From an uncultured Clostridia bacterium (GTDB taxonomy: Bacteria > Bacillota > Clostridia > UMGS1883 > UMGS1540): a stretch of DNA of 64,000 nucleotides. This document shows, piece after piece, positions 32,736-50,056 of this stretch. The notes under the pieces are model-generated. The model searched no databases. It was not told the origin of the DNA and saw only the letters and a list, made by a program, of their open reading frames with translations. Each line of letters starts with the position of its first letter. Position 1 is the first letter of the stretch. The translations under genes were made by a program, and so were the position numbers. Location: positions 57,970-121,969 of the forward strand of contig CALCLY010000025.1 in the NCBI GenBank assembly GCA_937966555.1, in the 5' to 3' direction.

Positions 32736-35700
32736 ATGAAAAAAATAGCTGCAATCATGACGTCGGTTTTCATGTGCTCGTCGTTTCTGCCCGTTTCGGC
32801 CGCACAAAGCGAGACGGTGACGATTCCCTACGTATATCACGAAACCTTCAACGATACCGCGGACGGTTTGGTGCCGTCAAGTATGGTGGCGAACGCCAAG
32901 ACAAATAAAATAGAGGTTAAAAGCGTTCCGTCCGAGAGTGACAAGAGTCTTAAATTCACATCCTCCACTCCGTCGGATTTTTACACAGACATAAGCCTCG
33001 GAGGCCTCGAAGACAATGTAGTAATAGATTTCAAGGTAAGATTTGACAAAAAATCGAATTCGGATTTCAGAATATACATGAAAAACTCGGCGGGAAAAGA
33101 GAGCGAGGTTTTGAGAATCAACAACAGTTTGCAGCTTTGCTCGCCTGACGGAACGGCGTATTCAAAGCTTACTACGGGTAAGTTTTATAAGCTGACAGTT
33201 AAAATCAATACCAAATCAGGACTTGCAAATTACTATGTGCGCGGCAAGGAGCGTGCGCGCGATATTTTGATAGGCGGCGGAACTTTTCAGAATATAAGCA
33301 TTCTCAGATTTCATTCTCTGGGCTTTGCGGGAGGCAACGTTTACCCCGAGTTTTATATTGACGAAATATCAGTTTACCAAAGCGAAAAACCAGATTTTGT
33401 GTTGAAAAACGAGGGTAAAGATGTTTCTTTGGGCGGCGGAACGGTAGGAAGCTCCGCAAGCGGAATTGCATCGGAAAGTGCGGTGGAGGATTATATGGGG
33501 AATGCAGCGGCTTTTTATATAGGTCAGCCGAGAATGTATGTGGACGGCGGCGTACAGTATGTAGACGCGGACAACACGTCGGCGGCGCCTTACATAAAGG
33601 AAGGGAGAACCATGGTGCCGCTTCGCGCGGCGGGAGAAGCTCTCGGGGCGGACCTTACGTACAGCGAAAAAGACCGGTCGGTGACGGTGGAATATGAAGA
33701 TAAAACCGCAGTGTTTACGGTTGATAAAAAAACATTTGAAAAGGACGGCGAAAAAATATCTCTTGACGCGGCGCCCGAAATCACGGCTTCGAGAGTATAT
33801 GTGCCTATCCGCGCAATCAGCGAGACTTTCGGCAAAAAGGTTACGTACGATAAATGCGGGCTGGTTGTTATTGCCGACCGCGAGGATTTCTTTAATTTCG
33901 TAACGGATCTCGATGTTTTCAGAAAGCTTACGGGCGACCTTTGCTTCCATGCGCCCACGGGTGCGGAGCTGGTAAGGAGGATAAAAGAAAACTTCCCGGA
34001 TAACGAGCATCCGCGTCTTTATGCAAACAGCGATAAAATTGCGGTTTTGCGTGAAAGAATTAAAAACGATGCGAATGTTGCAAAATGGTTTGAGAGTGTA
34101 AAGCAGCTTACGGAGGTATATTTCAAGACAGACCCGGTTGTATATGATATTTACGACGGAATAAGGCTTCTTTCAATATGCCGTACGGCAAGAGACAGAA
34201 TGCAGAATCTCGCCTTTTGCTATCAGATGACGGGCGAGACAAGATATGCCGACAGATGCATAGAAGAGATGAAGGCCGTTTGCAATTTTAAAGACTGGAA
34301 CCCGTATCATTTCCTTGATACCTCCGAGATGACAGAGGCTCTTTCCTTTGCATACGACTGGCTTTACGACTATTTGACGCCTGATATGCGCGAAACAGCG
34401 AAAACAGCAATTATTGAAAAGGGCTTAAATCAGATACTTGAAGACTACAGAGACGAGCCTTCGGGCAGAAGAAGAACCTGGAAATGGGCGCAGAGCCCTG
34501 TTGCGGACAACTGGAATTTAGTTTGCAACTCGGGTCTTTTGCAGGGCGCGATGGCTGTTGCGGAGGATGTCCCCGAAATTGCCGCGGAGGTGTTTGACGG
34601 CGGTTTGGAGCTTATCAAAAAAGCCGTTTTGCTTTACGGGCCGGACGGCGCATGGTATGAAGGACCCGGCTACTGGCTCTATGCTACAAGCTACTACACC
34701 GACCTTATGTGCTGTCTTGACTCGGTGTTCTCCGACACCTTCGGCTACTTAAACGTACCCGGTATTGCGCAGACAGGCTATTACATAACTTCGATTACGG
34801 GGCCGTGCGGAAACTTTAACTTTCACGATTCCGACATTGGAAGCGTAAACTCTCCCGAGATATTCTTCCTTGCGGATAAGCTTCATGACGCCGCTCTTTC
34901 AAATCTGCGAATGGAGCAGATGGCAGACAGGGGAACAAACGGAACCATAAGAGATATTTTGTATTATAATCCCGGACTTTCGGGAACAGCGGCAACAATG
35001 CAGAAGGATTACTATTTCCGCGATACGGAGGTTGCGTCTTTCAGAAGCGACTGGGATGACTCAAATTCAATATTCCTCGGCGTTCATGCCGGCAAAACAA
35101 ACGTATATCACGGTCATATGGACGCGGGAAGCTTTGTGCTTGACGGCTTCGGAACACGCTACGCCTCGGATCTGGGCGCGGACAACTACAATATCAGAGA
35201 CAGCGTGTGGAATCTTTACCGCTACAGAGCGGAGGGGCATAACACACTTGTTATAAATCCCTCAAAGGATGGCGGACAGAGGCTTGCCGGCGCGGCAAGG
35301 ATTGACAGATTCGAGTCGGGCATAAACAGCGGCTATGCGATAATGGATCTTACCGATATGTATAAGGACGCCGAAAGCGTCAGCCGCGGCTTTAAGCTTA
35401 CAAATAACCGCTCGGCGGTAATCGTACAGGACGAGATAAAGACAGCGGAGCCTGCCGATATATGGTGGTTCATGCACACAACAAACGACATTGAGGTGGC
35501 GGAGGACGGAAAGAGCGCGACTGTCAAGGGCAAATATAAAAATCTTAAGGTATCGCTTCTTGCCGACACACCGGGAACCTTCTCCGTTATGAGCGCTTCG
35601 CCTATGGAGACTTCGCCGCAGAACTCGGAGCAGAACAAAAACTTAATGTACAAAAAGCTTGCGTTCCATGCGGAAAATGTAACTGATATTACGATTCCCG

Positions 35701-36473
35701 TATTAATGCAGTTTGTAATACCGGTTGAAGGTTTTGAAGAAGAACTCAGCGTTCCGCTTGTTCCGCTCGCACAGTGGACGCTTGACGAAACCGGTGCTTC
35801 CGAAAAACCGATGCTTACAAGCATCACGGTGGACGGTGCAGAGCTTTCAGGCTTTAAACCCGACAGATATGTTTATACATACAGAATACCGGCGGAAAGC
35901 GACAGAATGCCTGAGGTTAAAGCGGAGGGCAGCGGAGAGGTAAGCGTTAAATACACCTCCTCGGTACCGGGATATGCGGTGATTACGGTAAACGACAGGG
36001 TTGACAGCAACGTTATAAACCAGTACATAATTAAAATAGATAAGGAAATCTTAAAACAGGCGCCCGAAGGCGTTTCACAGCTGAGTGTAAAGGAAGTTAA
36101 GGCAAGCTCTGTTCCGCAGCCTGAGAACAGCCCCGAAAACACGCTTGACGGCGATCTTTCAACGCGCTGGTCGGCTGAGGGCAATGCGAATATTGTGTTC
36201 GATCTCGGAGAGAGCAGGTCAGTAAAATATCTCGGTCTGGCGGTTTACCAGGATACGACAAACGACGGAAGACAGCAGTATTTTGATGTGCTTGTATCCG
36301 AAGACGGAGAAAATTATACTCAGGTCTACAGCGGCGAAAGCTCGGGAACAACGCTTGAGGAGGAAATATTCCCGATTCCCGAAACACGCGGAAGATATGT
36401 GAAGATTTATTGTAAGGGAACAAGCGTCGGAAACTGGAATTCGCTTACGGAGTGCACTTTGTACGGCAATTGA
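32736..36473 (+). CDS. Secreted multidomain polysaccharide lyase 1: signal peptide, LamG/DUF1080-like jellyroll, Cu-amine-oxidase-N-like domain, heparinase II/III-family domain, C-terminal F5/8 type C (discoidin) domain
   Basis: Signal peptide MKKIAAIMTSVFMCSSFLPVSAAQS. Heparinase II/III motifs (NWNLVCNSGLLQGAMAV; YHGHMDAGSFVLDGFGTRYASDLG). C-terminal NTLDGDLSTRWSAEG discoidin region. Start chosen at the ATG at 32736, with GGAG 6 nt upstream, in frame with the track start at 32667. Confidence 0.75.
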   Translation: MKKIAAIMTSVFMCSSFLPVSAAQSETVTIPYVYHETFNDTADGLVPSSMVANAKTNKIEVKSVPSESDKSLKFTSSTPSDFYTDISLGGLEDNVVIDFKVRFDKKSNSDFRIYMKNSAGKESEVLRINNSLQLCSPDGTAYSKLTTGKFYKLTVKINTKSGLANYYVRGKERARDILIGGGTFQNISILRFHSLGFAGGNVYPEFYIDEISVYQSEKPDFVLKNEGKDVSLGGGTVGSSASGIASESAVEDYMGNAAAFYIGQPRMYVDGGVQYVDADNTSAAPYIKEGRTMVPLRAAGEALGADLTYSEKDRSVTVEYEDKTAVFTVDKKTFEKDGEKISLDAAPEITASRVYVPIRAISETFGKKVTYDKCGLVVIADREDFFNFVTDLDVFRKLTGDLCFHAPTGAELVRRIKENFPDNEHPRLYANSDKIAVLRERIKNDANVAKWFESVKQLTEVYFKTDPVVYDIYDGIRLLSICRTARDRMQNLAFCYQMTGETRYADRCIEEMKAVCNFKDWNPYHFLDTSEMTEALSFAYDWLYDYLTPDMRETAKTAIIEKGLNQILEDYRDEPSGRRRTWKWAQSPVADNWNLVCNSGLLQGAMAVAEDVPEIAAEVFDGGLELIKKAVLLYGPDGAWYEGPGYWLYATSYYTDLMCCLDSVFSDTFGYLNVPGIAQTGYYITSITGPCGNFNFHDSDIGSVNSPEIFFLADKLHDAALSNLRMEQMADRGTNGTIRDILYYNPGLSGTAATMQKDYYFRDTEVASFRSDWDDSNSIFLGVHAGKTNVYHGHMDAGSFVLDGFGTRYASDLGADNYNIRDSVWNLYRYRAEGHNTLVINPSKDGGQRLAGAARIDRFESGINSGYAIMDLTDMYKDAESVSRGFKLTNNRSAVIVQDEIKTAEPADIWWFMHTTNDIEVAEDGKSATVKGKYKNLKVSLLADTPGTFSVMSASPMETSPQNSEQNKNLMYKKLAFHAENVTDITIPVLMQFVIPVEGFEEELSVPLVPLAQWTLDETGASEKPMLTSITVDGAELSGFKPDRYVYTYRIPAESDRMPEVKAEGSGEVSVKYTSSVPGYAVITVNDRVDSNVINQYIIKIDKEILKQAPEGVSQLSVKEVKASSVPQPENSPENTLDGDLSTRWSAEGNANIVFDLGESRSVKYLGLAVYQDTTNDGRQQYFDVLVSEDGENYTQVYSGESSGTTLEEEIFPIPETRGRYVKIYCKGTSVGNWNSLTECTLYGN

Positions 36474-36573: not shown

Positions 36574-36689
36574 CTACGATACATTATTGAACACGGAAAA
36601 GGCTTAAATTCGTAAAAAAGCCGCGGCGTGTGCACAAGAATTTAACGGTGTGTGAAAACAAAAAACGGATAACGGAAAGGAGAAGTGCA

Positions 36690-38540
36690 ATGAATTTTAA
36701 AAAAGCAATATCGGCGGCGCTGTCATCACTGCTGCTGCTTGCTTCGATTCCGTCTTATGCGGCGCCTGCCGCAAGCGAAAAAATCCCGTACGACACATTT
36801 GAAACGTACGGCAGCAAGCTCGGAGGCGGATGGAGAGTGCAGGGAGCGGATACCACGGCGCCGATTGTCGAAACCGAGAAGGGCAAAAGCGTGATGGGTG
36901 TGACAAGCCCGGGAGGAATGCTTGAGATTTTCAGAGATTTTGCGCAGACGGGAGAGAATGTAACGAGCGTTGCATGCGTGTTTTCGATTAAAATCGCGGA
37001 TCAAAATTCCCAAAGAAGTTTTTATACGAGAACTTCAAGCGGAGAATACGCTGTTTTGGCAATACAAAAGGGCGGGAAAATTAAAGTCGGAAAAACGGAA
37101 TATACGGAAATGTTGGTTGAAATTGACAAGTGGTATAACTTTTTTGTGGAATACAATGCAAAAAGCGGATACACAAGATGCCATATATCCGACGGCTCCG
37201 AAACAGTTACGGTATGCTCAAATCAAGATGCCGTAAATCTTACGGGACTGTACAGAATGAATTTTGCGCTTTTTAAACCCGATGAGGGCGAAAGCGTAAC
37301 ATACATCGATAATGCAGCTTTCTACGAGCTTCCGTATGATGTTGAAGCATATGCTGACGGAAAGGACACAAACGCACCTGAAACATTTGATGATTTTGAG
37401 CCTGCCGCTGACGGACTTACGGCGCCGCAGCCCGGCTGGAGGCTTCAGAACATCGAAGCCGGAAAGACTTCTCTTACGGCAGAATCCGCAGAGGGCAGAG
37501 GCAAATATCTGAAAATGCACAGTGAAGGGTTTAATCATTTTGAGCTTGTAAAAGATACGGGATTATTGGAGGGTGAGGCTGAAATTTCTTTTGATTTCAT
37601 GAAAACACCGCAGTCGTATTTTAAATTCGGCCTCCGCGGCACCAGGCCTGACGGAAGCCATATGAACGGAGCCTTTCCGATAGAGCTCACAAAGTCCGGA
37701 ATGCTGAATATAAGCGATGAAGCTCTGACAGCTCTTTCCGACAATGTATGGTACAAATTAAAAAATGAGTTTAACACAGAAAGCAATACAATGAAGATAA
37801 CGGTTTTGGAAGGAGATACAGAAGCGGCCTCCAAAACAATACCGATACCTCAAAATCTTATAAACATTACGGCGTATGAGTTTTATATGACGGTTACCGG
37901 AAATGCAAGCACGGTTTGCTTTGACAATTGCTTTGCGGGCAAAAATGTGTCGAAAGAAGCAGGCGTTTCCGGAATAAGCCCGGCGTTTGGAAATGTTTCT
38001 AAAAATATTGATAAGATTACAGTTTCGTTTGATGAAAAAATAACGGATGAAAACTTGGAAAATGCCGAGGCGCTTATAAACGGCAGCGCGGAGAATATTA
38101 AAGAAATCAAAGCGGAAGGGAAAACCGCGGTTATAACACTTTCGCATGAGCTTGCGGAGAATATGGGTTATCTTTTTGAGCTTACGGGCGTTAAAATAGG
38201 CGAAAAAGAGCTTTCGGCGATAATGTTTTATCAGACGCGCCCCGCCTTTGAGGTTATAAGCGTTGAGGGAGGAGAGCTTAAACCCGGCTTGTTTTCCTTC
38301 ACCGCGAAGATGGCTGCGACGGACGGAGGACCCGAAAAGGCTACGCTTATAACGATTATTTACGATAACAAAACCAATGCAATGGTCGGTGCGGATTTCT
38401 GCACGGCAGACCTCACCCCCGACGGGACGGAGTACAACACAAGCGTGGCACTTCCCGAGGGCAGCTACAGAGCTGTAAACTACATATGGGATAACGTTAA
38501 AAATATGCGTTCGCTTAACGCATTTTATGAAATAAAATAA
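36690..38540 (+). CDS. Secreted protein with two tandem LamG/DUF1080-like jellyroll repeats plus C-terminal beta-rich domains
   Basis: Signal peptide MNFKKAISAALSSLLLLASIPSYAAPAA. Repeat units begin (I/E)P..F/TFDDFE...GW..Q and end YIDNAAFYE / CFDNCFAG. RBS AAAGGAG. Confidence 0.6.
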   Translation: MNFKKAISAALSSLLLLASIPSYAAPAASEKIPYDTFETYGSKLGGGWRVQGADTTAPIVETEKGKSVMGVTSPGGMLEIFRDFAQTGENVTSVACVFSIKIADQNSQRSFYTRTSSGEYAVLAIQKGGKIKVGKTEYTEMLVEIDKWYNFFVEYNAKSGYTRCHISDGSETVTVCSNQDAVNLTGLYRMNFALFKPDEGESVTYIDNAAFYELPYDVEAYADGKDTNAPETFDDFEPAADGLTAPQPGWRLQNIEAGKTSLTAESAEGRGKYLKMHSEGFNHFELVKDTGLLEGEAEISFDFMKTPQSYFKFGLRGTRPDGSHMNGAFPIELTKSGMLNISDEALTALSDNVWYKLKNEFNTESNTMKITVLEGDTEAASKTIPIPQNLINITAYEFYMTVTGNASTVCFDNCFAGKNVSKEAGVSGISPAFGNVSKNIDKITVSFDEKITDENLENAEALINGSAENIKEIKAEGKTAVITLSHELAENMGYLFELTGVKIGEKELSAIMFYQTRPAFEVISVEGGELKPGLFSFTAKMAATDGGPEKATLITIIYDNKTNAMVGADFCTADLTPDGTEYNTSVALPEGSYRAVNYIWDNVKNMRSLNAFYEIK

Positions 38541-38556
38541 AAGGAGATGTTTTTGT

Positions 38557-41007
38557 ATGTTCGGAAAAAAACTAACGGCGATTTTTTGTGCGGCGGCAAT
38601 GACCTTGTCTTTGTGCGCATTGACAGCAGGGGCATCGGCAGGAGATATTCTTATTCCGCAAACAGATTTTGAAGGATACGACTTAGGTCACGAATTCCCC
38701 AAGAAGCAGGGAGTAGCATCTCCCGAATGGTCATATCAGAACGCAGGCTCCGCGGTTATAGCGGAGACGGAAAGAGGCAAAAGCGTTAAGGTTGCGGGAG
38801 AGGCTCACTGTGAATTCAGATACGGAAACCTCGAATGGAATATCGAAGACACAATTACATCAAGCTTTGCCATAAAGAGAGAAACGTCGATAAAAGACAT
38901 TGCTCTTATTATGTATCACAACAGCGACGCAAACTCCAGACAGGTTTTAAAGCTCCGCAATGACGGAGGCATCACCCTCTGGAAATCGAGTTACCCTCTT
39001 TCGGATTTCAAGATGGAGCTTGGCAAATGGTATGATATAACGGTTAAATACAGTAAAACAGGTAAGGTTTACGCGCATATATCGGGTAACGGCGATGAAT
39101 TTGAATGCTATGCCGAGGACAGCAAGATGGCTCTTGAAAAGGTATTGGTTTTCGATATATACACACCCGGTGCGGACACATATTATTTTGATGATGCCTT
39201 TGTTAAGGAAGATGCACCTTTAAAACATGTATTTACGCAGAGAGAAATTTTAAACGTTGATTTTTCGCAGTATGACGAAGGCACAACATGGGAGTCTCTT
39301 TACGGAGCTCCCGGAGGCGCTGCAAACGGCGCGGCAGTCGTTGCAAGTGAAAACGGAAAAAAATATATGAAGCTTACAAGCACGGGCAGTTATTTCCAAC
39401 CTGAAGTTGCGGCTTCGGTTCCGATGAGCGAAAAAGCATTTGTTTTTGAAGCCGATATAAGATATGCGGCGGCGGGCAAATTCAATTTCCAGCCGAGGAA
39501 CACCGCGGGTGAATGTAACTTTATGTATGTAGATATTAACGGAAAGATAAATTTTGGCACAAATAATTCAAGCGCTACCATTAAGTGCGGCGAAAATTCT
39601 CCGTGGTATCATGTTACATACTATTATCTCTTTGATGAGCAGACTGGCGTTGTTTTCTTTGATGACGGAGACCGAATTGTTTCTGCAAGCGGGAAAGCTA
39701 CAACGCCTGATAATAAAGATATCACAAAATGGGGATTTGTTCTCTGGGGCGGCGAAATGGATATTGCCAATATGTCCGTAAAGACATTTGACCCCAATAA
39801 AATTTCAAAGCAGGGAATAACAATAAACGATTTCTCATTTGACAATGTTGGAGACAAAATTTTAGATCCTGTCGCTGACGGCGCCGAGCCTGCAAAAAAC
39901 GCGTATTACGGCTGGATGCAGACAAATACGAAAAACGGCGAGGTTATAAGAGCAACCGCAAAGGGTGAAACCGTAGACGGCAGGAAGGTTGTTGCGTTAA
40001 AGGATATAACGGGTACGTATTCGGAGTTTATAAACGATAATTTGGGGATAGCCAAGAATATGCTCGTTGAAACCGTGCTCCGCGTGACGGACGGCTCGCC
40101 TCTTCATGTTCAGCTTCGCGGACTCAATAAAGAAGGAGCTGCGGCTAATGTGGATTCGGGGTTTGTGTATTTCACCGGAGACAGCTTTAGGCTTTTGGAC
40201 AAAAAGGTATGCGCAATTAATCCTGCGGAATGGTACAGGCTTTCGGTATACCTTGACACAGATGCCGACACGCCTCACGCATATGTGGGCATTACGAATC
40301 TTTCAAGCGGAGAGACCTTTAAGGCTGACGCAGATATACCGCGCGCAATTGCAACAATTACGAGACTCGGCTTCTTTATTCCGAACAAACCGGGAGCAGT
40401 GGCTTATATAGACAGCTGCCGCGTAAGCCAAAAGGGGCAAAACACAATAACCGAGGCTCCGAAGGACGGCGTCGTTATAGCGGCGGACGGAAAGCTTGAT
40501 TTTGCGGTTGATCTCGCAAATATCGACCCCATTGCAAGTTCGATTAAATTAAACGGTGCGGAAGCGGACGCAAGCTTTGATACCTTGAAAGACAGAAGGG
40601 TTTCCGTGTCCGGAAGCTTTGAAGAAAACAAAAATTACACAATGGAATATACGTTTAAGGACTATGCCGGCGGAAGCGTTACGGGTACGCTTGACTTTAA
40701 AACGCTCGCAAGCTACGAGTTTGGAAGCATTGAGCTTTCAAAAACGGCAATTGAAGCGGGTGCGGTTTCAGCCACGGTAAACGGCAGAGTGCTTGATTCG
40801 AAGCATTACGCTACCTTTATTATTGCCGTGAAAAACGCAAACGGACGTATTCTCGACATAGAGCTTAAAACAATCAGATACAACGCCGATAACACGGATC
40901 ATACCGTTTCGGCGGAGGTCCCCGCGGAGGAAGGCAACTACAGCGTATCGGCAATGCTCTGGAAGAGCAATATGCAGCCGATACAGAAGGCGGCTGAAAT
41001 AAAATAA
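38557..41007 (+). CDS. Secreted paralog with three tandem LamG/DUF1080-like jellyroll repeats and a C-terminal beta-rich region
   Basis: Signal peptide MFGKKLTAIFCAAAMTLSLCALTAGASA. The repeats resemble those of the upstream gene (ETERGKSVKVAG vs ETEKGKSVMGV; YFDDAFVKE vs YIDNAAFYE). Confidence 0.6.
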   Translation: MFGKKLTAIFCAAAMTLSLCALTAGASAGDILIPQTDFEGYDLGHEFPKKQGVASPEWSYQNAGSAVIAETERGKSVKVAGEAHCEFRYGNLEWNIEDTITSSFAIKRETSIKDIALIMYHNSDANSRQVLKLRNDGGITLWKSSYPLSDFKMELGKWYDITVKYSKTGKVYAHISGNGDEFECYAEDSKMALEKVLVFDIYTPGADTYYFDDAFVKEDAPLKHVFTQREILNVDFSQYDEGTTWESLYGAPGGAANGAAVVASENGKKYMKLTSTGSYFQPEVAASVPMSEKAFVFEADIRYAAAGKFNFQPRNTAGECNFMYVDINGKINFGTNNSSATIKCGENSPWYHVTYYYLFDEQTGVVFFDDGDRIVSASGKATTPDNKDITKWGFVLWGGEMDIANMSVKTFDPNKISKQGITINDFSFDNVGDKILDPVADGAEPAKNAYYGWMQTNTKNGEVIRATAKGETVDGRKVVALKDITGTYSEFINDNLGIAKNMLVETVLRVTDGSPLHVQLRGLNKEGAAANVDSGFVYFTGDSFRLLDKKVCAINPAEWYRLSVYLDTDADTPHAYVGITNLSSGETFKADADIPRAIATITRLGFFIPNKPGAVAYIDSCRVSQKGQNTITEAPKDGVVIAADGKLDFAVDLANIDPIASSIKLNGAEADASFDTLKDRRVSVSGSFEENKNYTMEYTFKDYAGGSVTGTLDFKTLASYEFGSIELSKTAIEAGAVSATVNGRVLDSKHYATFIIAVKNANGRILDIELKTIRYNADNTDHTVSAEVPAEEGNYSVSAMLWKSNMQPIQKAAEIK

Positions 41008-41036: not shown

Positions 41037-42635
41037 ATGAAAGAAAAAATAATTCCAATCGCACTGTGCGTTGCACTTGCGGCGGGCGCTTCGGCGTCCG
41101 CCGGCGAGATAAATTCCGCAACGGTTGACAAAACCACACACCGTGTGAGCATATCGGGCACGGCTGACAACGCGGGAGAAAGGGTTACGGTTGAAATTCT
41201 TTATCCGAATGTTTCGGAAAGCGATATAGATTCCGTAACACCCGAAAGCTTTACAAAGGTGTTCAGCAACGTTTTCGAGGTTGTGTCGGGTGCGGACAAA
41301 AAATTCACGGTGCCCGAGTATACTCTGGGCGATGTGTCGGGGCTTTACGGGATAAGGGTTATGGAGAGCAGCGGCGAAGCGCCGAGATTTTTCGAAAAAG
41401 CTTTCCGATATATTTCCGACACTTTTGAAGAAGAACTTGCCGCAGCGGCAAAAAACGGCACTCTTTATGATTTTACGGTTAAAAACGCGGAGATTCTGAC
41501 GGGTTTTGCGGACAAATTTTCAGAACTTTCGGAAGATGAGAAAAAAACAATAGTTTCTCTGTGCGAAAGTGCCGCAAAAAGCGGAACGGAATCATACGGA
41601 CGCGCTTTTGCAAGAGCCATGTTCTTAAAGAGCGGAGATGAGGCGTTCTTGACAGAATGCGGCTTTTCCGAAGATGTTAAGCCTGCGGAATACTTTAAAG
41701 ATTTCAGTGCCGATGATAAAAAGAACATCGTTTCCGGAGTTTCGGGAAAAACGCTTGATGAGATGACAAAAAGTTTCGGAGACGCATGTTTTATAGCAAA
41801 ACTTGCCACCGTTTCGGGAAGTTCAGGCATTGAAGAAATTTTGCTGCAAAATGAAGATTGGCACAAAATCGATTTGACAAAATACAAAGCTTTAAAAAGC
41901 AAAAAAAGTGTGAACACCGCGATTGCGGAGGAAAAACCGCAGAGCATTTCAAAGCTTGCGGCGCTTATTGACAAAGAAGTTTCAAAAGTTTCCGGCACAT
42001 CGAGCGGTTCAGGCAGAACGGAAACCTCGGGGCGCGGCGGCACAGGTTCGGCAGGGTTTACACCGGCGGATAAGAAAACCCCGGAAGACCAAACCGAACT
42101 TTTCACAGATCTTGCAGGTTTTGACTGGGCGAAGGAATATATAGAAAAGCTTGCCGAAAAGAAAATAGTTTCGGGAACAGGCGAGAAAAAGTTTTCACCC
42201 GAGAGAACCGTTACAAGAGAAGAATTTGTAAAGCTTATATGCGCGGCATTTGCAGGCGGTACGGCAGAATACAGAAATAACTTTGCCGATGTTTCCGCTT
42301 CCGACTGGTTTGCACCTTTTGTGGCGCGCGGCGTTGAAAAAGGCATTGTAAAAGGAATAGCCGGGGACCGTTTCGGAACGGGACTTAATATAACGCGTGA
42401 GGATATGGCGGTTATGGCGTTTAAGGCGTCGGGGCTTTCGCAAAAAGGCGACAGCATCAGCTTTTCGGATTTCTCCGAAATTTCCGAATACGCAAGAGAC
42501 GCCGTTGCGGCGATGAAGGAGCACGGAATAATTACAGGACGCGGCAATAACGAGTTTGCTCCGAAGGCATATGCCACAAGAGCCGAGGCGGCAAAAATTA
42601 TATGCATGCTGCTTGACGCCGTAAACGGGAGGTAA
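41037..42635 (+). CDS. Cell-surface protein with signal peptide and three C-terminal S-layer homology (SLH) domains
   Basis: The C-terminal ~180 aa contain three SLH-like repeats (FTDLAGFDWAKEYIEKLAEKKIVSG...; FADVSASDWFAPFVARGVEKGIVKG...; FSDFSEISEYARDAVAAMKEHGIITG...). Confidence 0.65.
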   Translation: MKEKIIPIALCVALAAGASASAGEINSATVDKTTHRVSISGTADNAGERVTVEILYPNVSESDIDSVTPESFTKVFSNVFEVVSGADKKFTVPEYTLGDVSGLYGIRVMESSGEAPRFFEKAFRYISDTFEEELAAAAKNGTLYDFTVKNAEILTGFADKFSELSEDEKKTIVSLCESAAKSGTESYGRAFARAMFLKSGDEAFLTECGFSEDVKPAEYFKDFSADDKKNIVSGVSGKTLDEMTKSFGDACFIAKLATVSGSSGIEEILLQNEDWHKIDLTKYKALKSKKSVNTAIAEEKPQSISKLAALIDKEVSKVSGTSSGSGRTETSGRGGTGSAGFTPADKKTPEDQTELFTDLAGFDWAKEYIEKLAEKKIVSGTGEKKFSPERTVTREEFVKLICAAFAGGTAEYRNNFADVSASDWFAPFVARGVEKGIVKGIAGDRFGTGLNITREDMAVMAFKASGLSQKGDSISFSDFSEISEYARDAVAAMKEHGIITGRGNNEFAPKAYATRAEAAKIICMLLDAVNGR

Positions 42636-42640
42636 AGGCA

Positions 42641-45265
42641 ATGAAATTTAAAAAACTTATATGTATGGCGGTTTCGGCGCTGATGCTTCTTTCCGTGCCT
42701 GTGTATGCAGATACTGCCGCCGAGGTGTCTGAGGAGTATACGCTGCTTTCCGAGCTGGGCTTTATATCGGCATCGGCAGCAAAGAAATTCAATTCAGACA
42801 AAAAAATCAAACGCGGCGAATTTGCTTCACTGACATCGCTTTCGATGGGACTTGAAAAGTCGGGACTTTCCCCCGAGGGGGCAGAAGGCTTTGACGATGT
42901 TACGACAAACAACGAAAACTATAAGGATATTCTTTTGTGCAAAGCCGCGGGAGTGTTTAAGGGTGACGGAAACGGAAATTTCCGCCCGCTTGACAAAATG
43001 ACATGTGCCGAAGGCGTAAAAGTAATCATGTCCGCTTTGGGATATGATGAGCTTGCAAAGGCATACGGCGGTTACCCTGCGGGATATTTCGTATGTGCGG
43101 CGGAAAACAAAATAACAAGCGGCATAAGGCTTGACGGAGAACGCTCCATGACATGGGGAGACGCCTTAAAGCTTTTTGCAAACGCCGTTGACACAAAGAT
43201 TTTCAAGCAGACCGTTTTCGGCTCCGAGGCTGTGTATGATTCAGGCACGGGCGAAACGTGGATTGAAAAATATCACGGACTGAAAAAATATTCCGGAAGC
43301 TTTCGCGCAGCGGAGGGTATCTCCTTTGAAAATGCAGATTCCATGGAAAAGGGAAAAATCATGGTTGACGGGACGATATTCGATTATAACGGCAGCAGGC
43401 TTGATCTTGCAGGAAGAGATATTTATTATTATGCCGAAAAGGATGAGGATATTATAGCGGCAATAACTCCGAAAAACAAGTCGGAGCAGATTGTTACGCT
43501 TTCGCCCGACGATGTTGCGTCGTTTAAAAACGGTGTCCTTACGTATTATGAGGGTGAAAGTGAAAAGCACATTACTGTTTCCTCCTCCGCGGACACGGTA
43601 TATAACGGCAGACCGGCATATTTGTCAGCTTCGGACTACACTGATTTCAAGGGAAACATAAAGCTTGTTTTAAACGGCAGCAGATGCAATACTGTTATTG
43701 TTGAGGACCCCGAGACGTTTGCGGTTAAAAAATCAATCGGTGCAAAAGATTTATTTTTCGATATGTACGAGAGCGGAAAGAGCTTTTCCTCAAAGGACAA
43801 AGAAATAACGTTTACCGACGAATACGGCGATACTGTGGAAATAGAAGAGCTCGGCGAATACGATATAGTTTCCGTGCTTCAAAGCCGTGACGGCAAGTAT
43901 GCAAAACTTTATTATTCAAGCCGCGAAATTTCAGGAACGCTTAATTCAGTTGATGAAAGCGGAGGAAATGTAACGGTTGAGGTAGACGGAAGCTTTTTTA
44001 AGGTTTCGGCAAACTATAAAAATGAAATCAGAAAGCTTTCGATAGGCAGTACGGGCTTGTGGGGAATTAATGTTTACGGCGAAATTTCGGCAATGAAGCC
44101 GTATTCTGCAAGCATGAAGTGGGCTTATCTGATAGAAAGCAGGAAAGACAAAGGCTTTGCCGGAGAATACAGGCTGCGTATTCTCTGTGATGACGGGAAG
44201 GTTCGTATATTTACCGCCGCATCGCGCGTTACGGTGGACGGCGATTCGGTTAAAAAGGAAAATCTTGACGGCGCTCTGCCGGCGGAGGGAATAATACGCT
44301 TCTCCGAAGCCGGCGGTATAATAAGCAGCATAGATACTCTGCAAAAGGGTGCGGATGAAAATGAAGAAAGCCTGACGGCTCTTTATGAGGGATATGATTC
44401 GTCAAAAAACACACTCGGAGATTTGCAATACAACGCGTATCAGTATATTTTCGGCTCGAGAGTGCCGATAAATAACAGCACAAAAATATTTATGGTGCCT
44501 TCCGTTGTGGAATACGATGACAGTCTTTACAGGGTGAAGAACCGCAGCTACTATATAAACGACAGAAGATACTCCATAAACGCTTACGCCGACCGTGCGG
44601 ATTCCCACATAGCCGGAGCTGTCCTCATGTTTACGGGCAGCGGCGCTGAGAAGATAGACGAAAACGTTGAGGTAACCATTATCGATTACGTTACGCGCGG
44701 AGTATCGGCGGACGGCACCTCCTGTTATATAATACACGGTCTGCGCGGCGGAGCGGAGGTAACAAACATAGTTAAAGACAATTCCGTTATAGACAATCTC
44801 ATGTCAATCGTTCCCGGACTGAGCGGACAAAAGCATACGCTTTCCTGCGGAGACGCCGTAAAGCTTGCTTTGAATTCCGAAACTCAGGAGGTTACGGACA
44901 TTGAGCTTTACTATGACAGAGAGAATGACTATATCCTCAAAAACTCCGGAATAACAAAAGATATTTCCGACAGCAACAGAATGCTCAAGGCAAGCGTTTA
45001 TTCCGAGGAGGGCGGCAATCTGTGGCTCACTCAGGAGGATCTTGACAAAGACGGAGTGGTTTTGAAGGCAGAGGATGTTGAGTCGGTTAACGCACTGCTC
45101 TACAGAGTTTATAAGCTTGAGCTTAAAAACGGAAAGCTCAAGGCTTCGGTTGCGGGTACGGGGGATATCTGCGACTATAAAAACACAGGAGAGAATTATT
45201 CCAAGATTGCAATGTTCAGTAAATACAACAATCCCGGAGTAATCCTGATATATAATTATGAATAA
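42641..45265 (+). CDS. Cell-surface protein with signal peptide and N-terminal SLH domains, followed by a ~650 aa domain of unknown function
   Basis: Signal peptide MKFKKLICMAVSALMLLSVPVYA. SLH-like repeats at residues ~30-190. RBS GGGAGG. Confidence 0.6.
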   Translation: MKFKKLICMAVSALMLLSVPVYADTAAEVSEEYTLLSELGFISASAAKKFNSDKKIKRGEFASLTSLSMGLEKSGLSPEGAEGFDDVTTNNENYKDILLCKAAGVFKGDGNGNFRPLDKMTCAEGVKVIMSALGYDELAKAYGGYPAGYFVCAAENKITSGIRLDGERSMTWGDALKLFANAVDTKIFKQTVFGSEAVYDSGTGETWIEKYHGLKKYSGSFRAAEGISFENADSMEKGKIMVDGTIFDYNGSRLDLAGRDIYYYAEKDEDIIAAITPKNKSEQIVTLSPDDVASFKNGVLTYYEGESEKHITVSSSADTVYNGRPAYLSASDYTDFKGNIKLVLNGSRCNTVIVEDPETFAVKKSIGAKDLFFDMYESGKSFSSKDKEITFTDEYGDTVEIEELGEYDIVSVLQSRDGKYAKLYYSSREISGTLNSVDESGGNVTVEVDGSFFKVSANYKNEIRKLSIGSTGLWGINVYGEISAMKPYSASMKWAYLIESRKDKGFAGEYRLRILCDDGKVRIFTAASRVTVDGDSVKKENLDGALPAEGIIRFSEAGGIISSIDTLQKGADENEESLTALYEGYDSSKNTLGDLQYNAYQYIFGSRVPINNSTKIFMVPSVVEYDDSLYRVKNRSYYINDRRYSINAYADRADSHIAGAVLMFTGSGAEKIDENVEVTIIDYVTRGVSADGTSCYIIHGLRGGAEVTNIVKDNSVIDNLMSIVPGLSGQKHTLSCGDAVKLALNSETQEVTDIELYYDRENDYILKNSGITKDISDSNRMLKASVYSEEGGNLWLTQEDLDKDGVVLKAEDVESVNALLYRVYKLELKNGKLKASVAGTGDICDYKNTGENYSKIAMFSKYNNPGVILIYNYE

Positions 45266-45298: not shown

Positions 45299-46354
45299 AT
45301 GGAAAAAAAAGTAAAATACGCAGTGGTTGGAACGGGTTCATTCGGTTCGCATCATATTAATACGCTGAGCCTTATCAGAAACGTAGAAATAGTTGCCGTA
45401 TGTGACGTACACCGCGACACGGCTGAAAAAGTGGCCGAAAAATATGGAATTAAAGGTGTTTACAGCGACGTTGACGAGATGCTCGCAAAAGAGGATATTG
45501 ATATCGTAACCGTTGCAACCGGTGACAAGGCACATAAGGATGCCACGATTAAAGCTTTAAATGCCGGCAAAAACGTTTTGTGCGAAAAGCCGATGTCTCT
45601 CCATGTTGAAGACTGTGCTGAGATGATAAAGGCTGCCGATAAAAGCGGTAAAATTCTTATGGTAGGTCAGATTTGCAGATACACACCGGGCTTTATTGAA
45701 GCCAAGAGAATGGTTGACGAAGGTTACATAGGCGAGCTTTTCTATGTTGAATCCGAATATGCTCACGATTATGCACATATTCCCGGTACTGACAACTGGA
45801 GAGTTGACCCCGACCGCGACCCCATTATAGGCGGCGCGTGCCACGCTATAGACCTTCTGCGCTGGATAGCCGGCGATCCCAAAGAGGTTTCGGCTTTCTC
45901 AAATCATAAAATGCTTACAACATGGCCCGTAAACGACTGCACAGTTGCAATATTCAAGTTCCCGAATGATGTAATAGGCAAGGTGTTCACGTCCATCGGC
46001 TGTAAGAGAGATTACACCATGAGAACCGTGCTTTACGGAAGCCGCGGAACAATCGTTGTTACAAACACAGACAATCATCTCACTCTCTACAGAGCACAGG
46101 ACGGTGACGAGGCGACGGACAAATTCCTCGGCGGCGTATTCCCGGGTGCTGACCAGTGCATAAGACATGAAATTCCCGTTGTGGTTAACAACCACAATAT
46201 AGGCGGCGAGCAGGAAGCTATGATCGATTCGTTCTTAAACGGAACTCCCGTTCTTATGACGGGCATGGAAGGTGCGAAAACCGTTGCCGTTTGCTGTGCG
46301 GCGGTTGAGTCTGCAAAGAAAGGCGAAATCGTAAAAATAGATTATAATTTCTGA
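45299..46354 (+). CDS. Gfo/Idh/MocA-family NAD(P)-dependent oxidoreductase
   Basis: N-terminal Rossmann motif KYAVVGTGSFGSHHINTL and the conserved EKP motif (VLCEKPMSL). 351 aa. Confidence 0.8.
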   Translation: MEKKVKYAVVGTGSFGSHHINTLSLIRNVEIVAVCDVHRDTAEKVAEKYGIKGVYSDVDEMLAKEDIDIVTVATGDKAHKDATIKALNAGKNVLCEKPMSLHVEDCAEMIKAADKSGKILMVGQICRYTPGFIEAKRMVDEGYIGELFYVESEYAHDYAHIPGTDNWRVDPDRDPIIGGACHAIDLLRWIAGDPKEVSAFSNHKMLTTWPVNDCTVAIFKFPNDVIGKVFTSIGCKRDYTMRTVLYGSRGTIVVTNTDNHLTLYRAQDGDEATDKFLGGVFPGADQCIRHEIPVVVNNHNIGGEQEAMIDSFLNGTPVLMTGMEGAKTVAVCCAAVESAKKGEIVKIDYNF

Positions 46355-46409: not shown

Positions 46410-46452
46410 GGGGGGGGTAGACAGGCGTTACACTTGTTTGCCCCCCTTTTTT
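46410..46452 (+). terminator. Possible terminator: G8 ... C6 followed by T6, with a large loop
   Basis: GGGGGGGG(46410-46417) ... CCCCCC(46441-46446) TTTTTT, downstream of the oxidoreductase gene. Confidence 0.35.
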
Positions 46453-46501: not shown

Positions 46502-49500
46502 ATGAGCAAAAAATTATTTTCTGTTTTGGTAATTATCTCTGTGCTGGCGGCACTTTTTACATCGTTTTGTGCGGCGGACGAACACGTTAATATTTTGCCG
46601 GCGAAAACAAAAAGCATAGCGGCAAATATATCAAAACGCAATCAGGGTTTGGAAATAGAAAATGTTATTGACGGAATTGACAGTACGCGGTTTGTATCAA
46701 AGGAATCGGAAACGGGAGAACTTACGGTAACCGTTAATCTAAAAAAAGAATTCAGTTTAACTGCCGTTGCGGTACGCGAGCGTTTCTTTACCGTAGGTTC
46801 TATGGCGAACGGCGTAAATGTTGAAGTAGGTACATCAGAAACAATGAAGGCGGTTGTTCAAAACGGTAAATTAAACAGCGGAACAACCGGAAGTGACGGA
46901 GAAATCGTCAGAACGGAATTTTCTTTTGCGGCGGCAAGCGGAAACATAATTAAATTTACTTTCACGCCCGGAGCATTAAAGGGAAACGGTGAATCTTTAT
47001 ACCAGCTTGCGGAGCTTGAGGCATTCGGAACGGAAATATCTTCGGGTGAAAGCGGAGAGGAAGAGACAAATTATATGACAGAGAGAATATACAATCCGTA
47101 CCTGCCGAGTTATGAATATATACCGGACGGGGAGCCGCATGTTTTCGGTGACCGCGTGTATATTTTCGGAAGTCACGACCATTACGAAGGAGCCGATTGG
47201 TGCGGCACGGATTATGTTGCATGGTCTGCACCGGCAAACGATTTATCGGCGTGGAGGTGTGACGGCGTAATCTGGGACTGTGACAGTGACCCGAGTTATT
47301 CTTCGGGTCAGGCGCTTTACGCACCCGATGTTACAAAGGGCGCAGACGGCAAGTATTATCTTTACTATCCTTTAAACGGCTCGGGAAGAATAGGCGTTGC
47401 GAAATGCGATACGCCGGCAGGAAAATATGAATATCTCGGAGCGGTGCAATACCCCGACGGCACGAATTACGGCAGAAAAGCCGGTGATCCTCCGGCATGC
47501 GACCCGGCGGCATATGTGGATGATGACGGGAGAGTATATTTTTACGCAGGTTATACAACGCACGACGAAACGGAATACAACGGACAAATAGCAAATGGCG
47601 TGGGAGCCGACGGAGCCTATTGCGTTGAGCTGGAATCAGATATGGTAACCGTTAATGAAAACACGCGCCGGAGAATTGTTCCCGGAAAGTATATTACGGG
47701 TGAGCAGGGCAATGAAGAATATGCCGGAAACGGATTTTTCGAAGCCGCGAGCATGAGAAAAATTAACGGGAAATACTATTTTATTTATTCCAAGGAAGAG
47801 GGACATCAGCTTGCCTATGCTGTCGGAAACAGCCCGAGCGGACCGTTTTCTTTCGGCGGCATTATAGTATGCAATACCGATGTAGGTTATGAGGGAAATG
47901 TTGAGAGAAAGGCAATTTACGGAAACAACCACGGAAGCATTGCCGAGATAAACGGCGAATATTACATATTCTATCATCGTCAGACCGGGAAAAAGTGCAG
48001 ACAAGGCTGCGCCGAAAAAATAAATATAAATTCCGACGGCTCGATAAATCAGGTTGAAATAACAAGCTTTGGCTTGGGCGGCGGCCGCCCCATGCTTGCA
48101 AAGGGCAAATTCCCCGCATATATTGCCTGCAATATTTCTCAGGGTGCAAGCTACGCGCAAACAGGGAAAGACGGAGACGTTTTTGCAAAGCAATATGTTT
48201 CGGCTTTAAAGACCGGAGAGTATGTGGGATATAAATATTTTTACTTTAAAGATACGAACAAAATTTCAGTAACCGCAAAAGCTCCTTCGGGCGGAAAAAT
48301 AAAGGTTTATACAGGGGCTATGATAGGAAGTCCTATAGCGGAAATTCCTTTGTCCGCAACAAGCGAATGGACAAAGTTTTCGCAGGATGTGAAGTTTGAT
48401 AACGGCACAGAGGCGCTTTTCTTTGTGTATGAGGGCAGCGGAACTCTTGATATTCTTGATTTTACTTTGGGAGAAGAGGGAGAAAGCCATGAAGTTTCAA
48501 TAAGCGGAAGCGAAGCTGCCGTCAGCGGAGCCGGAAGCTATCAGAGCGGCGAAACCGTTGCCGTATCTGCGGGAAGCCGCGAAGGATATGCATTTGACGG
48601 ATGGACGGTGAACGGAAACGCAAAGCTTGCGGATATCGGCAGTGCGGAAACGTCGTTTATAATGCCGGAAGAAAATGTTTCACTGACGGCTTTATGGAAA
48701 GCTGCTCCGCCGACTCCGAAAAACATTTTGCTTGCCTCGCAGAATCATGTAACAAAGGCAGAGGTAAACTTGCCTGCCGTAGTGCCGGTGCTCGGCGAAT
48801 ACAAAATGCGCAACGGAGAGATAGCCTCAAACGGAGATGACCGTTACGCGGCAAAAACGGGCGATGAGCCTTTGATTATCACATATACGCTTGATAAAAT
48901 ATATGATTTTTCAAAGATTTCCGTTTACGAGCGTTTCCAGGGCTATACGTTCGGTGAGGAGGTAAAAATAGAAGTCGGCAACGTTAAAAACGGTGCATAT
49001 GTCTTTGAGGAGGCTCTTTCGGGAGGAAGACTGAAGCAGGGCGCGGAACCCGGGAATGTTAATATAGCGCCATGCGTGCGTACAGATTTTAATATTTCGG
49101 CAAAGGGAAGCGCGCTGAGGCTTACTTTTACAAATAAATGGGAGGATAAAGACGGGAACCCGACAGGCGGAGTTCAGTCAAACGGCGGAAAAGAAGTCAG
49201 CACAGGCTACAGCTTTTTTGAGCTTGAAGCTTACGGAATCGAAATTGAAGGCGGAGATTTGCCCTACAACGTATGCCTCGGAAAGGCAGTATCGGTAAAT
49301 CTGCCTGCAGAGTATGCCGCTTTGCCTGCATCGGCAATTACGGACGGTTCCTATGAAGATAAATTGATGACGGAAACCGAGTATGACAGATATACAAGTC
49401 CTCCGTCTCCGAAAGAAGCGTTGGTTGTAACAATCGACTTGGACGGAGTGTATGACATCGGCTGGGCGGAGTTTAACAGCAGATTTGTTGTAAACGAAGG

Positions 49501-50056
49501 AGTGATCGCAGACCGCGTCAAGGTCGAGGTTGGCAGATCGGGCGCTTTCGGAACAACGTGGACCGTGGCAAACGATAACGTTATATTAAATAAGGGCGGC
49601 GACGGCGAGCATGTCTCCACACTTATTCCCTTTGAAAAAACGCTTACAGGCAACGAGATACGCTTTACATTGTTCAGAAACAGTTACAGCAGTCCGTGCA
49701 ATTATAACATTGCGGAGATTATGGCATACGGAAACAAAGCTGAAACCAAAACGGAGGACAGTATAGGCAGCGTGAGATTTATGAAATCAAAGTCGGGAGC
49801 CGTGACGGCAGCCGTAAAAGTCGTAAAGCAGGAAGAAAATTCCGTTTTGCCCGAAAAAACAATACTAATATTGTGTACATATAAAAATAACAGATTAGTC
49901 AGTGTGGATAAAAAGGAATATACACCGGCGGTTGGCGGAAATGAACTTACGGCAACGGTGGACAGTGTGGACGACGGCTGTGATATAAAGGCTTTTCTTT
50001 GGGAAAGCGCCACTTTAAAGCCGCTTATCGGCTGTGAAGCATATATTGCACAATAA
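46502..50056 (+). CDS. Secreted multidomain glycoside hydrolase: N-terminal discoidin-like domain, GH43-like five-bladed propeller, additional beta-sandwich/discoidin-like modules
   Basis: Signal peptide MSKKLFSVLVIISVLAALFTSFCAA. GH43-type motifs: NPYLPSYEYIPDGEPHVF (Asp base), LYAPDV (Asp) and GFFEAASM (Glu). 1184 aa. Confidence 0.55.
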   Translation: MSKKLFSVLVIISVLAALFTSFCAADEHVNILPAKTKSIAANISKRNQGLEIENVIDGIDSTRFVSKESETGELTVTVNLKKEFSLTAVAVRERFFTVGSMANGVNVEVGTSETMKAVVQNGKLNSGTTGSDGEIVRTEFSFAAASGNIIKFTFTPGALKGNGESLYQLAELEAFGTEISSGESGEEETNYMTERIYNPYLPSYEYIPDGEPHVFGDRVYIFGSHDHYEGADWCGTDYVAWSAPANDLSAWRCDGVIWDCDSDPSYSSGQALYAPDVTKGADGKYYLYYPLNGSGRIGVAKCDTPAGKYEYLGAVQYPDGTNYGRKAGDPPACDPAAYVDDDGRVYFYAGYTTHDETEYNGQIANGVGADGAYCVELESDMVTVNENTRRRIVPGKYITGEQGNEEYAGNGFFEAASMRKINGKYYFIYSKEEGHQLAYAVGNSPSGPFSFGGIIVCNTDVGYEGNVERKAIYGNNHGSIAEINGEYYIFYHRQTGKKCRQGCAEKININSDGSINQVEITSFGLGGGRPMLAKGKFPAYIACNISQGASYAQTGKDGDVFAKQYVSALKTGEYVGYKYFYFKDTNKISVTAKAPSGGKIKVYTGAMIGSPIAEIPLSATSEWTKFSQDVKFDNGTEALFFVYEGSGTLDILDFTLGEEGESHEVSISGSEAAVSGAGSYQSGETVAVSAGSREGYAFDGWTVNGNAKLADIGSAETSFIMPEENVSLTALWKAAPPTPKNILLASQNHVTKAEVNLPAVVPVLGEYKMRNGEIASNGDDRYAAKTGDEPLIITYTLDKIYDFSKISVYERFQGYTFGEEVKIEVGNVKNGAYVFEEALSGGRLKQGAEPGNVNIAPCVRTDFNISAKGSALRLTFTNKWEDKDGNPTGGVQSNGGKEVSTGYSFFELEAYGIEIEGGDLPYNVCLGKAVSVNLPAEYAALPASAITDGSYEDKLMTETEYDRYTSPPSPKEALVVTIDLDGVYDIGWAEFNSRFVVNEGVIADRVKVEVGRSGAFGTTWTVANDNVILNKGGDGEHVSTLIPFEKTLTGNEIRFTLFRNSYSSPCNYNIAEIMAYGNKAETKTEDSIGSVRFMKSKSGAVTAAVKVVKQEENSVLPEKTILILCTYKNNRLVSVDKKEYTPAVGGNELTATVDSVDDGCDIKAFLWESATLKPLIGCEAYIAQ

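Follow-up and report, generated by a model that had tools for sequence, protein, structure and literature searches.

Tandem concanavalin-A-like modules in two putatively secreted proteins encoded beside PL35-like lyases of an uncultured gut Clostridia bacterium

The well-described surface glycan-binding proteins (SGBPs) belong to the Sus-like systems of Bacteroidota, and little is known about the surface capture of acidic polysaccharides, of host or dietary origin, by Gram-positive gut Clostridia. The SusE/SusF-like SGBPs of Bacteroidota PULs and the multi-CBM surface proteins of Gram-positive bacteria are secreted, non-catalytic and strain-divergent proteins built from tandem beta-sandwiches, and are encoded in operons beside enzymes. 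The two proteins described here, predicted to be secreted and named A and B, resemble them in all these respects; they differ in the fold family, in having no lipid anchor, in a presumed attachment via separate SLH proteins, in the Gram-positive Clostridia host and in a binding activity that we infer. Sus-like systems of Bacteroidota are the subject of PMC2757170. As for the enzymes, members of family PL35 cut hyaluronan, chondroitin sulfate, heparan sulfate and alginate (PMC12088678, PMC11262172); GAGase II (8KHV), GAGase VII (8KHW) and the B. caccae PL35 chondroitinase (9O3Q) are alike to the catalytic region of the lyase, lyase 1, encoded next to A. PL35 chains of known structure measure about 600 aa, whereas the Clostridial lyases add a jelly-roll unit, a Cu_amine_oxidN1 domain, an F5/8C domain, or whole N-terminal arrays of the A type. 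The closest structural relative of the A/B module is an internal beta-sandwich of Bacteroides thetaiotaomicron BT_1020 (PDB 5MQR/5MQS; PF22585), about 12% identical in sequence to the unit; it is a CBM by Pfam label only, with no ligand documented in PMC7263609. In BT_1020 the domain occurs once, flanked by a glycoside hydrolase domain on either side, whereas A and B are tandem stand-alone arrays.

The window is a 64,000-nucleotide stretch of a contig from an uncultured Clostridia bacterium. According to its ORF list, protein A (616 aa, 36690..38540) and protein B (816 aa, 38557..41007) are encoded one after the other; both genes, with all their domains, lie on the forward strand. Both ORFs are real: a strong ribosome-binding site (AGGAG, 36678-36682) is located 7 nt 5' of the ATG of A (36690), and orthologous genes of 616 aa for A and 813-816 aa for B were called in the related contigs L001 and L002. 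After a signal peptide, A contains units A1 (aa 28-215, 36771..37334), a concanavalin-A-like jelly roll that falls into the conserved 'position 1' class of units, and A2 (aa 226-419, 37365..37946). Protein B also starts with a signal peptide, followed by units B1 (aa 29-220, 38641..39216), B2 (aa 224-413, 39226..39795) and B3 (aa 418-627, 39808..40437). In A the repeats thus reach no further than residue ~420, and in B no further than ~627; beyond them each protein carries an Ig-like domain and then a C-terminal (Ct) domain of ~95 aa, both missing from the first-pass annotation of this DNA. The Ig-like domain of A (aa 420-518, 37947..38243) matches Pfam Big_5 (E 2e-6; 28.9 bits, cutoff 23.6). 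That of B (aa 628-718, 40438..40710) reaches only E 0.013 with the Ig HMM, and is recognized by its alignment with the Big_5 domain of A and by beta strands in the AF2 model. The Ct domains (A: aa 519-616, 38244..38540, beta-rich and with no Pfam match; B: aa 719-816, 40711..41007) match the Ct HMM with E 4e-26 and 3e-19, respectively.

The annotation had considered A and B as secreted paralogs. They are indeed paralogous, since residues 52-616 of A align with 254-816 of B (E 1e-12), and Sec-type signal peptides, as read from the sequence, predict secretion of both. Neither sequence contains an SLH domain, an LPXTG motif or a lipobox, and with no lipobox or LPXTG anchoring as lipoproteins or by sortase is ruled out. 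The lack of a recognizable wall-anchoring motif speaks against a role in glycan capture, as does the fact that ConA-like/LamG domains also mediate protein-protein contacts.

The presence of two module copies in A and three in B, each of ~185 aa, as well as of a further copy at the head of lyase 1, had been proposed from the sequence and is borne out by profile matches. Iterated profiles overran the unit boundaries (HMM lengths >500), so a fixed-length HMM was built from unit A1 and independent relatives. This profile matches the other five copies, A2 (E 1e-19), B1 (2e-25), B2 (3e-16), B3 (1e-10) and residues 56-214 of lyase 1 (1e-12), and no match beyond these known copies was found in a six-frame translation of the window. 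Iterated profiles seeded with A2, B1, B2 or B3 each retrieve all five A/B units. Direct comparison of the units gave an uneven picture: Smith-Waterman z values against shuffles are 14 for A1-B1, 9.5 for A2-B3, 8.7 for A1-B2, 7.3 for B1 with the lyase 1 unit and 6.4 for A2 with the same unit, with a negative control reaching 4.5, whereas B2-B3 gives -0.2. With shallow orthologue alignments, hhalign assigned 94-95% probability only to A1-B1 and A2-B3 (94% for the latter), and near zero to most other pairs; pairwise tests alone would thus have wrongly rejected the repeats. Self-BLASTP of A and of B detected no internal repeat. At the protein level the units are only 15-25% identical, which rules out both a repeat in the DNA itself and a tandem duplication of recent date.

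The motifs quoted in the annotation (FE..Y, GW, E.GKS, WY and Y.DN) correspond to conserved columns of the unit. W148/Y149 and D207 are 93-96% conserved (n=101 units), and W, Y and D are the only near-invariant residues across 62-101 units; no catalytic signature is thus apparent, in line with a putatively non-catalytic role. Unit 1 of the two-unit proteins forms a tight conserved class (n=21), within which the charged strand residues E38, E79, R109, R189 and D207 are conserved; the remaining units drift, most of them diverging very fast, and no polar constellation conserved across the unit classes was seen. All five A/B units are acidic (pI 4.6-5.4). Proteins that bind polyanionic glycosaminoglycans seldom are, unless a metal mediates the contact, and this property speaks against glycan capture.

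At the superfamily level the unit has the concanavalin A-like lectin/glucanase fold: two antiparallel sheets, with about 13-15 strands in all, make up a curved beta-sandwich that superposes on structures of lectins, LamG domains and GH16 members. It is structurally equivalent to the BT_1020 domain underlying PF22585, and several of its closest structural neighbors are sugar-binding lectins or annotated carbohydrate-binding modules. The AF2 model of whole protein B is all-beta, with a mediocre pLDDT of 65, and its Foldseek matches have low TM-scores; sequence-profile searches of the PDB returned marginal matches only (E >= 0.008), the best being neurexin LNS domains (E 0.008); the W-Y/H strand motif of the unit resembles that of these domains. 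The unit had been described as a LamG/DUF1080-like jelly roll. Laminin_G_3, LamG/LNS and DUF1080 do belong to the same ConA-like jelly-roll superfamily, but membership in these families is not supported: a Pfam scan of the window units gave no hit at E<=1 to PF06439 (DUF1080) or to PF13385 (Laminin_G_3). Indeed, the window units reach the threshold of no Pfam or NCBIfam model, the latter returning only a weak match to a GTA spike-fibre model (E 0.016), and this counts against the glycan-capture reading.

The Pfam model matched most often by the 62 family units is PF22585, Sialidase-like_CBM (13 of them at E<=0.1, best 3.5e-11), followed by Laminin_G_3 (6 units, best 1.7e-5) and, weakly, DUF1080 (3 units, best 6e-3). 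A and B do not match PF22585 at E<=1 and stay below its gathering cutoff of 27 bits; the copy heading lyase 1 gets 12.9 bits (E 0.11), and the distant relatives P0062, P0065 and P0064 pass the cutoff with 76.7, 44.2 and 42.4 bits, respectively, a point in favor of glycan capture. One unit of P0064 also exceeds the PF13385 cutoff of 27.6 bits, with 31.9. As in the CAZy definition of a carbohydrate-binding module, the unit occurs as a discrete non-catalytic module inside carbohydrate-active enzymes, namely lyase 1 and the fused lyases listed below; its attachment to lyase catalytic domains and its lectin-like fold are indirect evidence for the binding of a carbohydrate.

Lyase 1 (32736..36473, forward strand) consists, according to Pfam, of the unit, a Cu_amine_oxidN1 domain, a PL35-like catalytic region (DUF4962/DSE-like_N and Hepar_II_III_C) and an F5/8 type C domain; its unit copy spans aa 25-225 (32808..33410, forward strand). 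The catalytic part matches the PL35 structures 8khv (3.4e-74, query residues 16-538), 8khw (2e-66) and 9o3q (3e-66). This full-length catalytic similarity to characterized PL35 enzymes classes the neighboring lyases, on sequence grounds, as PL35-like.

The family is rare, with 62 matches among 1.84 billion representative proteins. A word-indexed protein search retrieved six close relatives of B (65-99% identity) and two of A; GTDB species genomes, scanned by means of two very specific peptide patterns from the A/B alignment, gave no match, and a literature search found no paper on the A/B family. In each of the six independent loci inspected (one being the window together with L001 and L002, the others L003, L004, L006, L008 and L010), members of the family lie directly 3' of DSE-like_N/Hepar_II_III_C, PL35-like, lyase genes, and the cassette of a two-unit protein, a three-unit protein and two SLH proteins recurs across loci at about 25-35% identity. 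In addition, the unit is fused to a lyase catalytic domain in P0042, P0045, P0058, P0062, P0063, P0064 and the second lyases of L003, L004 and L010, and in P0021 and P0040 an A-type protein is fused to a homolog of SLH protein 1 (E 4e-60 and 2e-98).

Downstream of B, SLH protein 1 (41037..42635, forward strand; Pfam SLH E 4e-37) has three C-terminal SLH repeats and is the likely cell-wall anchor partner; SLH protein 2 (42641..45265, forward strand; E 6e-8) has its SLH region at the N-terminus and is kept after SLH protein 1 in L001-L004. A GFO/IDH/MocA oxidoreductase follows (45299-46354). The intergenic gaps from A through B, the SLH proteins and the oxidoreductase are 16, 29, 5 and 33 nt, and a strong intrinsic-terminator-like hairpin (46410..46448, forward strand; a 16-bp stem with 8 GC pairs, then a T run) probably marks the end of a lyase 1-A-B-SLH1-SLH2-oxidoreductase operon. 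The operon also has a regulator of the AraC type, with genes for sugar catabolism downstream.

Taken with this context, A and B are probably secreted, non-catalytic accessory proteins of a Gram-positive polysaccharide-utilization operon organized around PL35-like lyases in an uncultured gut bacterium of Oscillospirales/Acutalibacteraceae-like affiliation. Their two or three divergent concanavalin-A-like modules in series, followed by the Ig-like spacer and the small C-terminal domain, would bind a uronic-acid/hexosamine polymer, glycosaminoglycan-like, which is cut by the neighboring lyases; holding the polymer at the cell surface would raise its local concentration for these enzymes, and the N-terminal module of lyase 1 may do the same job in cis. 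The two co-transcribed SLH proteins would keep A and B on the cell wall, possibly through the common Ct domain. The substrate-capture role suggested in the first-pass annotation fits the adjacency of PL35-like lyases in every locus examined and their fusion to the family in several relatives, and glycan binding itself is what we infer from this arrangement.

Other explanations have to be weighed against this one. The modules may mediate protein-protein contacts, so that A and B would be structural or scaffold parts of a cell-wall complex, binding SLH proteins, lyases or the S-layer and organizing the enzymes with no substrate contact of their own. Proteins are frequent ligands of LamG/ConA-like domains, and the neurexin LNS match is the best one in the PDB profile search; a fixed protein partner would explain why the unit 1 class is tight while the others drift, and the SLH-protein fusions and the acidity of the units point in the same direction. 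However, many different architectures join the module, at various positions, directly to the catalytic domain of a lyase, as expected from substrate targeting, and sugar-binding lectins and annotated carbohydrate-binding modules are among its closest structural neighbors, so that this explanation appears rather unlikely. It is highly improbable that at least one unit is a cryptic ConA-fold enzyme, such as a lyase (PL7/PL14/PL20 type), a hydrolase of the GH16 type or, in partnership with the GFO/IDH/MocA protein, a 3-keto-glycoside eliminase of the DUF1080 type. The oxidoreductase gene in the operon and the charged residues conserved in the A1 class would agree with it, but the window units do not match these enzyme families in Pfam, DUF1080 is found weakly in only 3 of the 62 units, and no polar residues are conserved across classes. 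Moreover, the Rossmann domain of the oxidoreductase starts at residue 6, leaving no signal peptide and thus no co-location with secreted A and B; the secreted or periplasmic GFO/IDH/MocA partner typical of PF06439 proteins was not found in the operon, and the earlier idea of a 3-keto-glycoside hydrolase is therefore not upheld.

The variability of the family bears on a further alternative. Some orthologues of B carry a different allele of the B1 unit, 40% identical in sequence, while their other domains are 94-100% identical; such domain-wise mosaic alleles fit a surface-exposed protein. Together with the very fast divergence of most units, they could mean that A and B belong to the variable surface proteins and serve mainly for something other than nutrient capture, such as attachment to mucus or glycans of the host, or protection from phage and immunity as decoys or shields, with the link to lyases reduced to co-regulation. 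This is distinctly improbable, since lyases adjoin the family in every locus examined and are fused to it in some relatives, and the operon holds a regulator and sugar catabolism genes. Under the substrate-capture reading, the unit-wise mosaic alleles represent a natural experiment from which the unit that determines specificity might be read.

The family is unannotated, and both its fold and the logic of tandem binding modules beside enzymes are already familiar. Its rarity, the adjacency to PL35-like lyases in six loci and the SLH fusions make it a concrete candidate both for a new family of carbohydrate-binding modules and for the capture component that has been missing. A bolder and, in our opinion, unlikely extension is that PL35-like lyases, two-unit, three-unit and two SLH proteins form an undescribed wall-anchored complex for glycan capture and degradation in Gram-positive gut bacteria; the Ct domain would be a new module docking onto SLH scaffolds in the manner of dockerin and cohesin, and the units a new CBM family whose unit-wise allele swaps retune ligand specificity among strains. 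Unless this idea is true, the expected gain is incremental. The Ct domain is common to A, B, a GH43 enzyme and other CAZymes: a third copy (49790..50026, forward strand; Ct HMM E 3.6e-8) is at the C-terminus of a secreted GH43/CBM6/F5-8C protein (46502-50056), and in L001 a copy occupies the same position. The genes for KduI, for a PfkB kinase, for a NagA-like amidohydrolase and for a NagB homolog that lie upstream support the substrate-capture reading.

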